Origin: an uncultured Alphaproteobacteria bacterium
GTDB lineage: Bacteria; Pseudomonadota; Alphaproteobacteria; RF32; CAG-239
Reading direction: 5' to 3'
Length of the DNA: 64,000 bases
NCBI GenBank assembly: GCA_934271715.1
Contig: CAKQRZ010000004.1
Location: 11,651 to 75,650, forward strand
A model generated the notes under the pieces. That model was not told the origin of the DNA, did no database searches, and saw only the letters and a list, made by a program, of their open reading frames with translations. Below, piece by piece: positions 16,029-16,320 of this stretch. The position numbers and the translations under genes were made by a program. Within the stretch, counting starts at the first letter, position 1. The number at the start of each line of letters is the position of its first letter.

Positions 16029-16320
16029 ATTTCTAACTCCGTTTATTTTGTTACATAAAAACAAAACCCGCCGTGATAAAAGCGGGCGGATGTTAGCAAA
16101 CCGTAATACAATTAGAACGGCTCGGCCTATTCAGCTCATAGCCATATTCAGCCGACATCCGTCCAACGAACAGAAATCGGCATAACAAAATTTAAGTCGT
16201 TTATGCATAACGACTAATTGTATTAAAGGGTTGCTACGCCCTAGACAAGCTATCGCTCATCTAAAAATTATTTTAAGAGAAGATTGTTTGAAAGTAAAGA
16301 CAATTTAATCAGTACAACCA

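Follow-up and report, generated by a model that had tools for sequence, protein, structure and literature searches.

A pseudoknotted 5' leader predicted to combine a terminator switch with ribosome-binding-site sequestration upstream of pilin-like and other genes of gut Alphaproteobacteria

The window examined here, a stretch of 64,000 nucleotides (nt) of contig CAKQRZ010000004.1 (assembly GCA_934271715.1) from an uncultured alphaproteobacterium of the RF32 lineage, contains five pilin-like genes whose upstream regions we compared by reading. In front of three of them, genes 2 (15156-16028), 3 (38038-38682) and 5 (60532-61161), stands an element composed of a promoter and a structured leader RNA that ends in an intrinsic terminator, and these copies are referred to as A, B and C. 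The pseudoknotted 5' leader is predicted to unite a switch based on this terminator with sequestration of the ribosome-binding site (RBS) of the downstream gene. Copies A and B lie on the minus strand, the sense strand of their pilin-like genes, and all three copies fold much more stably than dinucleotide shuffles, at z = -5.4 (copy A), -6.4 (copy B) and -7.8 (copy C).

A preliminary description of this DNA had aligned 16066-16310 with 38690-38960 along their whole length, and the alignment is real: copies A and B share ~85% identity by nhmmer (E 9e-30) and 81% mean column identity over 453 columns when flanks are included (15990-16400 and 38650-39060, MAFFT). The conserved blocks quoted there (aaacggagttagaaa, ggcgggcggatgttag, acggctcggc, cgacatccgtccaacg and taacgacta) were all found. 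The leader had been described as common to genes 2 and 3, which was confirmed, with a third copy overlooked at gene 5 (copy C, 61180-61372, of the same architecture and very different sequence) and further copies in front of non-pilin genes. A cggatgt/acatccg dyad corresponds to a real pair, GGACGGAUGU at 16155-16164 with ACAUCCGCCC at 16084-16093, the arms of which are ~60 nt apart and not 100. Either a structured 5' untranslated region (riboswitch-like or an attenuator) or a complex promoter had been proposed, and both parts are present, first a promoter and then a covarying leader with an intrinsic terminator. The description had also considered that transcription might start right at the RBS, that covariation might be missing, or that the similarity might come from a duplicated gene remnant; the predicted start lies away from the RBS, covariation is plentiful and the similarity includes no gene remnant. 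Finally, it had separated this leader from the hairpin cassette of genes 1 and 4, which do carry an unrelated cassette flanked by inverted repeats. The parts of the three copies are as follows.

16293-16298, minus strand: copy A promoter, -35 hexamer TTTACT (consensus scan), followed by a 17-nt spacer
16270-16275, minus strand: copy A promoter, -10 hexamer TAAAAT (consensus scan); the whole promoter spans 16270-16298
16050-16263, minus strand: copy A leader RNA, from the predicted start through the U tract (cmsearch 180.1 bits, E 1e-46)
16244-16261, minus strand: P1, the 5' hairpin, with a GAUA loop (RAUA across copies); 7 of 7 pairs compensatory
16227-16242, minus strand: P2 hairpin, AGGG/CCCU, whose loop, GUAGCAA, provides the 5' strand for the pseudoknot pairing PK
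16216-16226, minus strand: P3 5' strand, part of a hypervariable long-range helix
16195-16215, minus strand: P4 hairpin, followed by the conserved UUAAA linker at 16190-16194
16155-16180, minus strand: P5 hairpin, 90.7% of cells paired
16155-16164, minus strand: P5 3' strand GGACGGAUGU, RBS mimic and 5' strand of the antiterminator
16122-16155, minus strand: P6 hairpin with two conserved A-rich internal loops (GAAUA each side); compensatory pairs 6 of 6 in the outer part, 2 of 3 in the inner part
16101-16120, minus strand: P7, CCGU/ACGG, 4-5 base pairs (bp), with the P3 3' strand as its loop
16105-16114, minus strand: P3 3' strand UAAUUGUAUU, inside the P7 loop
16092-16099, minus strand: PK 3' strand UUGCUAAC
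16088-16094, minus strand: anti-RBS segment AACAUCC
16084-16093, minus strand: antiterminator 3' strand ACAUCCGCCC
16066-16087, minus strand: intrinsic terminator GCCCGC..GCGGGU, 5 of 7 stem pairs compensatory
16057-16065, minus strand: terminator U tract (scan)
16035-16041, minus strand: copy A RBS CGGAGUU, read from the sequence and complementary to the AAC(A)UCCG segment
16026-16028, minus strand: start codon of pilin-like gene 2, read from the sequence
38705-38945, minus strand: copy B as a whole (cmsearch 170.5 bits)
38917-38945, 38705-38910 and 38721-38739, minus strand: copy B promoter, leader RNA and terminator (scan)
38689-38695 and 38680-38682, minus strand: copy B RBS and ATG
61180-61405, minus strand: copy C as a whole, a divergent subtype (cmsearch 164.3 bits)
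~61372-61405, 61180-61372 and 61196-61216, minus strand: copy C promoter region, leader RNA and terminator (scan)
61217-61223, 61166-61172 and 61159-61161, minus strand: copy C anti-RBS segment AACUUCC, RBS GGAAGUU and ATG

Covariation was scored on a covariance-model-based alignment of 37 copies, with controls in which the pairing partners were slid by 1-3 columns. Standard pairs filled 96.9% of cells compared with 33-44% in the slid controls, and double-sided changes, which the preliminary description had suggested looking for across genomic copies, were abundant, occurring in 30 of 41 pairs (7-13 in the controls). The covariation score of 0.617, against 0.05-0.12 for the slid partners, was reached by none of 500 shuffles, and an independent RNAalifold prediction contained P1, PK, P5, P6 and the terminator. 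Paired columns held 196 G-U cells and only 7 A-C cells, and covariance-model scores on the reverse strand were 23 bits at most, showing that the folding molecule is the sense RNA and neither the DNA nor an antisense transcript.

P2 is a 4-bp hairpin that covaries as AGGG/CCCU, GGGG/CCCC and GAGG/CCUC, and its loop (C-GU-NNN-AA) pairs with a distant UU-NNN-AAC to form PK, in which column pairs 32:208, 33:207 and 34:206 are fully compensatory. Together P2 and PK have the classical geometry of an H-type pseudoknot, a one-nucleotide loop over a 7-bp stem, as established pseudoknot stereochemistry has it. An extension of PK by G26-G27:C214-C215, proposed by RNAalifold, was rejected: copies with an A in column 26 keep an A-U pair in P2 and would mismatch in the extension. 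P3 spans 7-16 bp and differs in sequence in every copy; because this makes alignment by columns impossible, it was tested by pairing energy, which averaged -9.9 kcal/mol for cognate strands and -2.2 kcal/mol for non-cognate ones. The PK triplet and P3 were both matched in 65 of 68 unique A-type leaders. P7 keeps its complementarity as CCGU/ACGG, CUAU/AUAG, CAUUU/AAAUG or ACUG/CAGU, depending on the leader type. Simultaneous formation of P3 and P7 is ruled out sterically, as a linker of 0-1 nt cannot cross a helix of 8-16 bp, and P7 was therefore assigned to the alternative conformer.

A few metagenome leaders have 5' and 3' halves that do not match in P3 and/or PK (L122 39-246, L154 9469-9671 and L092 755-957, possibly also L146 132-334 and L104 1183-1408). 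These may be real recombinants of paralogous leaders or assembly chimeras joined across the invariant core. Recombination between leaders was considered as a switching mechanism and rejected, since the scripted test found mismatches in 3 of 68 leaders and these could be chimeras.

The 5'-most 35-40 bp of the element form a conserved promoter. Comparison of the 75 nt upstream of the copies gave CTTTAC(A/T), a 17-nt spacer and TAAAAT, with an A/T-rich tract ahead of them that in copy A reaches to ~16310, and the consensus scan found the hexamers in all three window copies. By its sequence this promoter is of a near-consensus sigma-70 type. The hexamers stand at a constant distance from P1 in ~30 of 35 homologous copies, and because the -10 box ends ~6 nt before this first hairpin, the start site is predicted at the foot of P1, with ~230 nt transcribed ahead of the gene. 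The leader itself is ~205 nt long and ends about 25-50 nt before the start codon in almost every copy, and the order of parts is promoter, P1, P2, PK, P3, P4, UUAAA, P5, P6, P7, AAC(A/U)UCC, terminator with U tract, RBS. Upstream of copy A, a small lipoprotein-like reading frame (MTKIICLCLVLATALSAC...) occupies 16377-16549 on the minus strand, ending at 16377, and is followed at 16318-16356 by a long hairpin between runs of A and T (AAAATCCTTGG...CCAAGGATTTTTT). This hairpin probably terminates the upstream gene, which would make the leader A promoter an independent unit.

Intrinsic terminators were detected by scan directly upstream of the gene in all three window copies. The P5 3' strand, GGACGGAUGU or, in the second subtype, GNCNGGAAGG, has two possible partners: the P5 5' strand, or AAC(A/U)UCC together with the 5' half of the terminator. 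The latter pairing is the cggatgt/acatccg antiterminator, with 89.6% of cells paired and 6 of 10 pairs compensatory; in column pair 122:216, for example, C-G occurs in 25 copies, U-A in 9 and A-U in 1. Support for P5 is about equal, and the two pairings are mutually exclusive, a layout that in sequence terms combines terminator, antiterminator and anti-antiterminator. The partner AAC(A/U)UCC also complements the real RBS, which identifies the P5 3' strand as an RBS mimic. This complementarity is type-specific, AACAUCC occurring with AGGAUGUU or CGGAGUU and AACUUCC with AGGAAGUU, and in non-pilin metagenome copies the RBS, AAGGAUGUU, complements AACAUCC perfectly. An exact 7-mer complement of the leader's own segment was present within 60 nt downstream in 40 of 95 unique leaders, compared with 1/694 and 7/694 control gene starts. 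A conserved leader peptide was also sought; the AUG of copies A and C is missing from copy B and most other copies, and ribosome-mediated attenuation by a leader peptide was rejected for that reason.

Fold energies were obtained from nested-fold calculations, which exclude the pseudoknot. On this basis 36 of 37 leaders preferred the closed fold (P5 plus terminator) to the antiterminator fold, with a margin of 3-27 kcal/mol, and the two were about equal in the divergent copy at locus L009. When the 5' partner strands of P3 and PK were left out, P5 and the antiterminator averaged -29.3 and -28.8 kcal/mol and were iso-energetic at the decision point, and in the second subtype the antiterminator was then favoured. 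These nested energies suggest that the antiterminator competes only when P3 and PK are absent, so that the decision probably lies in the docking of the 5' and 3' domains; the switch would depend on that docking through P3 and PK.

Taken as a whole, the element is probably a self-contained expression cassette, a promoter plus a ~205-nt leader RNA acting in cis, with two levels of control over the downstream gene. The analysis shows the promoter, the terminator, the helices, the two alternative pairings and the match between leader segment and RBS; for the direction of regulation and its trigger we infer the following scheme. Termination would be the default. In this OFF state the closed fold would consist of P1, the H-type pseudoknot (P2 with PK), P3, P4, P5 and P6, and P5 would hide the RBS mimic (GGAUGU or GGAAGG). 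With the mimic hidden, AAC(A/U)UCC and the 5' half of the terminator would be free, the intrinsic terminator would form, and transcription would halt about 25-45 nt ahead of the start codon. In transcripts that read through, AAC(A/U)UCC could pair with the real RBS (GGAUGUU, GGAGUU or GGAAGUU). In the alternative ON state, the P5 3' strand would pair instead with AAC(A/U)UCC and the terminator 5' half, making a closing stem around P6 and P7 in a fold that resembles sRNA-Xcc1 and C4 RNAs; this would abolish the terminator and free the RBS. The trigger might be a small ligand, a protein, or the short terminated RNA itself, working on the locus that encodes it.

The element extends well beyond the window. 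The exact gene 3 protein was found only on metagenome contigs, and relatives of the five pilin-like proteins numbered at least 557 with one genome per species. The best 80 loci were kept, most of them from metagenome-assembled genomes of uncultured gut Alphaproteobacteria from humans, deer and other animals, and about half of these 80 pilin-like loci carried the leader when searched with nhmmer and then with the covariance model. This gave 37 confident copies at 100-183 bits, including the three of the window, plus one divergent type at 44 bits. A metagenome scan with the A-type motif only (20 specified bases) matched >120 stretches, and of the 80 loci examined all 80 held model-confirmed leaders, 85 copies in total at 51-182 bits. 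A same-strand gene began about 25-45 nt after the leader in 75 of these 85 copies. Pilin-like genes followed in 12 of 82 assessable matches; the other downstream genes encoded autotransporters (PF03797, E 1e-52), an adenine methylase of the EcoRI type (PF13651, E 1e-128), a glycosyltransferase of the Stealth plus GT8 kind, a membrane enzyme of the Sulfatase family, small lipoproteins with a PEGA-domain protein among them, and further proteins without a family match. The element is reused before many surface and contingency-type genes of gut Alphaproteobacteria. A phage origin was rejected, as six pattern matches in two viral-contig scans yielded none that the covariance model confirmed and were chance matches; on four viral loci matched by the A-type pattern, Rfam reported tRNA and GP20-b only.

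Several loci in this collection have features of their own. The third, strongly divergent type, at L009 3807-3988, lacks P4 and keeps P1, P2, PK, P3, P5, P6, P7, the terminator and a complementary pair of its own, AGCUCC with the RBS GGAGCU; its list of parts shows which are indispensable to the leader. Tandem leaders, each with its own promoter and 271 bp apart, occur at L092 (483-687 and 755-957) and L146 (132-334 and 403-606), with a gene only after the second leader. The L113 copy and those of the L167/L094/L150/L158/L168 type have no same-strand reading frame downstream. Many contigs (L006, L008, L021, L023, L028, L038-L040 and others) end within a few hundred bases of the pilin-like gene, which suggests that near-identical 5' gene parts and leaders break assemblies and that copy numbers per genome are underestimated.

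The preliminary description had also proposed an Rfam scan of the two regions. At gathering thresholds the whole window returned two tRNAs only, and even at relaxed thresholds the matches of the window copies and metagenome leaders included no riboswitch family, T-box or protein-binding leader. The riboswitch label is thus without an Rfam match, and an attenuator-type leader is the description that the results support. A literature search with the conserved strings plus RF32, Alphaproteobacteria and pilin returned no description of this RNA.

The best relaxed match was sRNA-Xcc1 (RF02221), in copies A and B and in 21 metagenome leaders, with scores of 26.1, 33.3 and 24.4-40.2 bits, all below the gathering score of 53. 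In 23 of ~24 A-type leaders tested, the full model (positions 1-87) matched at the same place, and the matched stretch, P5 3' strand to terminator 5' strand, coincides exactly with the antiterminator conformer; copy C, of the second subtype, had no sRNA-Xcc1 or C4 match at relaxed thresholds. The likeness extends to the closing stem (GGACGGAUG / CAUCCGCCC), the AAUA / GAAUAA internal loops of a first hairpin, a second hairpin of the form GCCGU-loop-ACGG (GCCGU..ACGGUUU), a joining strand rich in U that closes with AAC, and a C-rich tail containing Us. The overall fold agrees as well, with a closing stem around two hairpins (P6 and P7) and a joining strand before the 3' closing strand. However, sRNA-Xcc1 RNAs are free-standing molecules of ~87 nt on integrons and islands, whereas here the fold is one conformer of a ~205-nt leader abutting a gene, and its 3' closing strand doubles as the terminator 5' half and the RBS complement. 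We take the relationship to be real for the fold and possibly one of descent; neither by score nor by context does the leader belong to the family.

C4 antisense RNA (RF01695) also matched, at 21-31 bits against a gathering score of 45. In the immI region of phages P1 and P7, c4 carries recognition sequences with complements both upstream (a1b1) and downstream (a2b2), and a2b2 covers the RBS. C4, which RNase P excises from its precursor, lies within the leader of its target operon, and RBS control is coupled to Rho-dependent termination. Our leader shares the closing stem with two hairpins, the variable recognition sequences in the second hairpin loop and joining strand, the leader position and, by prediction, the coupling of RBS control to termination. 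Complements of the upstream a1b1 type are found here too, between the P7 loop and the P3 5' strand and between the joining strand and the P2 loop, and they are locus-specific; a c4-a1b1 motif is listed in PMC2864571. A target of the a2b2 type was rejected, upstream and downstream, on equal cognate and non-cognate pairing energies, which with 450 nt of downstream sequence were -6.7 and -6.9 kcal/mol for the P7 loop and -7.2 and -7.0 kcal/mol for the joining strand. The leader further differs from C4 in that termination would use an intrinsic terminator overlapping the fold and not Rho, and in that the controlled genes are chromosomal surface-protein genes of Alphaproteobacteria instead of phage immunity genes.

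Two other systems offer parallels. IsrK of the Salmonella Gifsy-1 prophage produces, from one promoter, a short terminated RNA and a read-through mRNA with a sequestered RBS; alternative structures decide translation, and the terminated isoform activates the translationally silent read-through isoform (PMC4825925). As far as the described architecture goes, our leader would likewise have short terminated and read-through forms and RBS sequestration, but IsrK is a single locus and the leader has many copies per genome, for which trans-activation by the short form is hypothetical. With classical attenuators and riboswitch expression platforms the leader shares segments that pair 1:2 (P5), 2:3 (antiterminator) and 3:4 (terminator) before a U tract, together with possible RBS sequestration; unlike classical attenuators it has no conserved leader peptide, and its sensing part contains a pseudoknot and a hypervariable long-range helix.

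There are alternatives to a cis-acting leader with two levels of control. The closed fold might be an aptamer for a metabolite or second messenger whose binding sets the choice between terminator and antiterminator. Such a riboswitch would account for the architecture of aptamer plus platform with variable peripheral helices, for the invariant unpaired UUAAA, the two P6 AAUA loops and GGA-G, for the terminator/antiterminator pair, and for the many copies per genome, some in tandem, before functionally related surface genes, an arrangement that recalls the regulons of cyclic di-GMP riboswitches. We consider it unlikely, given the lack of any Rfam riboswitch match even at relaxed thresholds, the absence of an obvious ligand pocket and a gene set that includes a DNA methylase and cytoplasmic enzymes; in addition, most of the conserved sequence consists of the RBS mimic, its complement and the P6 loops, which are common to free-standing RNAs of the sRNA-Xcc1 type. 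A regulator like IsrK or c4, in which the abundant terminated ~205-nt RNA acts in trans on rare read-through transcripts of its own locus, or on nascent leaders, to open or close the RBS, with hypervariable P3 and PK as the locus-specific address, is a joint reading that we also rate as rather improbable. The consistent ranking of sRNA-Xcc1 as best Rfam match, the additional C4 matches, the upstream complements of the P7 loop and joining strand that mirror the a1b1-c4 layout, the IsrK precedent of a terminated isoform that activates a read-through one (PMC4825925) and the existence of gene-less orphan copies all point that way, and P3 and PK sequences unique to each locus would keep cross-talk low. 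On the other hand, there is no downstream equivalent of a2b2, the cognate partners lie in the same molecule so that pairing in cis would come first, all Rfam scores are under their gathering thresholds and copy C has no match.

If the element were instead a free-standing gene for a trans-acting small RNA, with its own promoter and terminator and with incidental read-through into the downstream gene, its strong promoter and terminator, its likeness to a known small-RNA family and the orphan and tandem copies would be expected. This is very improbable, because the 25-45 nt between U tract and start codon leave no room for another promoter, the downstream RBS covaries with the complementary leader segment, and 75 of 85 metagenome copies directly abut a gene in the same orientation. 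Least credible, and already disfavoured by the data, is a feature acting purely as DNA, such as a complex promoter with regulator-binding dyads, a site of recombination or a mobile promoter cassette, in which RNA structure plays no part. The spread of the cassette before unrelated genes, in a genome rich in inverted repeats and recombining pilin-like genes, would suit it, but the excess of G-U over A-C is strand-specific, pairing in the helices persists through complete changes of sequence, the structured part is located downstream of the promoter hexamers, and neither terminal inverted repeats nor target duplications were seen.

Several points nevertheless weigh against the two-level cassette that we prefer. 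The start site, termination and read-through are all predicted. Part of the model depends on placing P3 and P7 in different states, and several positions of the alternative helices are invariant, so that covariation is unable to test them. The fold energies leave out the pseudoknot, and in the same nested folds the antiterminator is far less stable than the closed fold, so it may rarely form without an additional factor. Finally, ~10 of 85 metagenome copies, among them the first leader in each tandem, lack an open reading frame downstream, and such copies fit a free-standing RNA as well as a leader.

Genes for pilin-like proteins, autotransporters, lipoproteins, capsule or lipo-oligosaccharide enzymes and DNA methylases are typically phase-variable in other bacteria, and finding these kinds of gene downstream indicates that the element probably governs the surface that an uncultured lineage of gut Alphaproteobacteria of humans and ruminants shows to its host. 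With >120 metagenome matches and a complex fold it is abundant, yet absent from Rfam at threshold, and it is a candidate for an orphan riboswitch or for an attenuator controlled by a protein or an RNA. A fold of the sRNA-Xcc1/C4 kind, known from phages and genomic islands, would here serve as a predicted antiterminator in a chromosomal 5' leader, linking two classes of RNA regulator so far treated separately. A more speculative idea, with a small chance of being right, is that the leader is an RNA-only device for variable or exclusive expression of surface antigens, or else a new riboswitch-class aptamer, for instance for a second messenger, that governs a whole surface regulon. Were it an RNA-only device, the PK triplet and P3 would give each locus a private address, and the abundant terminated leader, or a factor reading the closed fold, would act on its own locus only. 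The outcome would be bistable switching that resembles phase variation without a change in the DNA, affecting pilin-like proteins, autotransporters, lipoproteins, capsule enzymes and methylases.

The pilin-like proteins of the window matched Pfam N_methyl weakly (14.7-15.5 bits, cut-off 21.2), as they did the NCBIfam prepilin models, and show a visible G|RSMIEML plus hydrophobic-helix pattern. In many leader-associated pilin-like genes, palindrome-rich insertions of 100-450 nt lie between the start codon and the prepilin motif. In gene 2 the insertion occupies 15795-16010, between MYKNFE and GRSMIEML, and others occur in L004, L020, L037, L042, L059, L062, L104, L128 and further loci (for example CATATTGACATTGCTAAAGCAATGTCAATATG). 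None of the insertions seen interrupts the reading frame, the products having 240-370 amino acids, and the insertions look like small repeat elements that are tolerated, or used, within a cleaved leader peptide.

Other repeats in the window lie close to these genes. The convergent genes 4 and 5 share a 573-nt inverted repeat (59861-60433 / 60571-61143, 88% complementary, 137 nt between the arms), and recombination across it would swap their 5' control regions and 3' ends. Upstream of copy B, a 61-nt direct repeat, 90% identical (38999-39059 / 43650-43710), is a duplication of the 3' part of tRNA-Thr (43668-43740, minus strand), and it brackets ~4.65 kb that start with a tyrosine recombinase at 39362-39952 (Pfam Phage_integrase, E 9e-21). 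The bracketed segment looks like an element integrated into tRNA-Thr, directly upstream of the copy B promoter. The hairpin cassette of genes 1 and 4 consists, just before the gene 4 RBS, of a perfect 24-nt inverted repeat around a 133-nt segment (59577-59600 / 59734-59757); the same cassette precedes the gene 1 RBS (~12200-12360), and a partial copy lies at 43884-43978. In other genomes its segment had the same orientation relative to the neighbouring pilin-like gene in 13 cases and the inverted orientation in 3, which fits an invertible promoter, although in the inverted cases the segment could instead belong to a divergent gene next to it.

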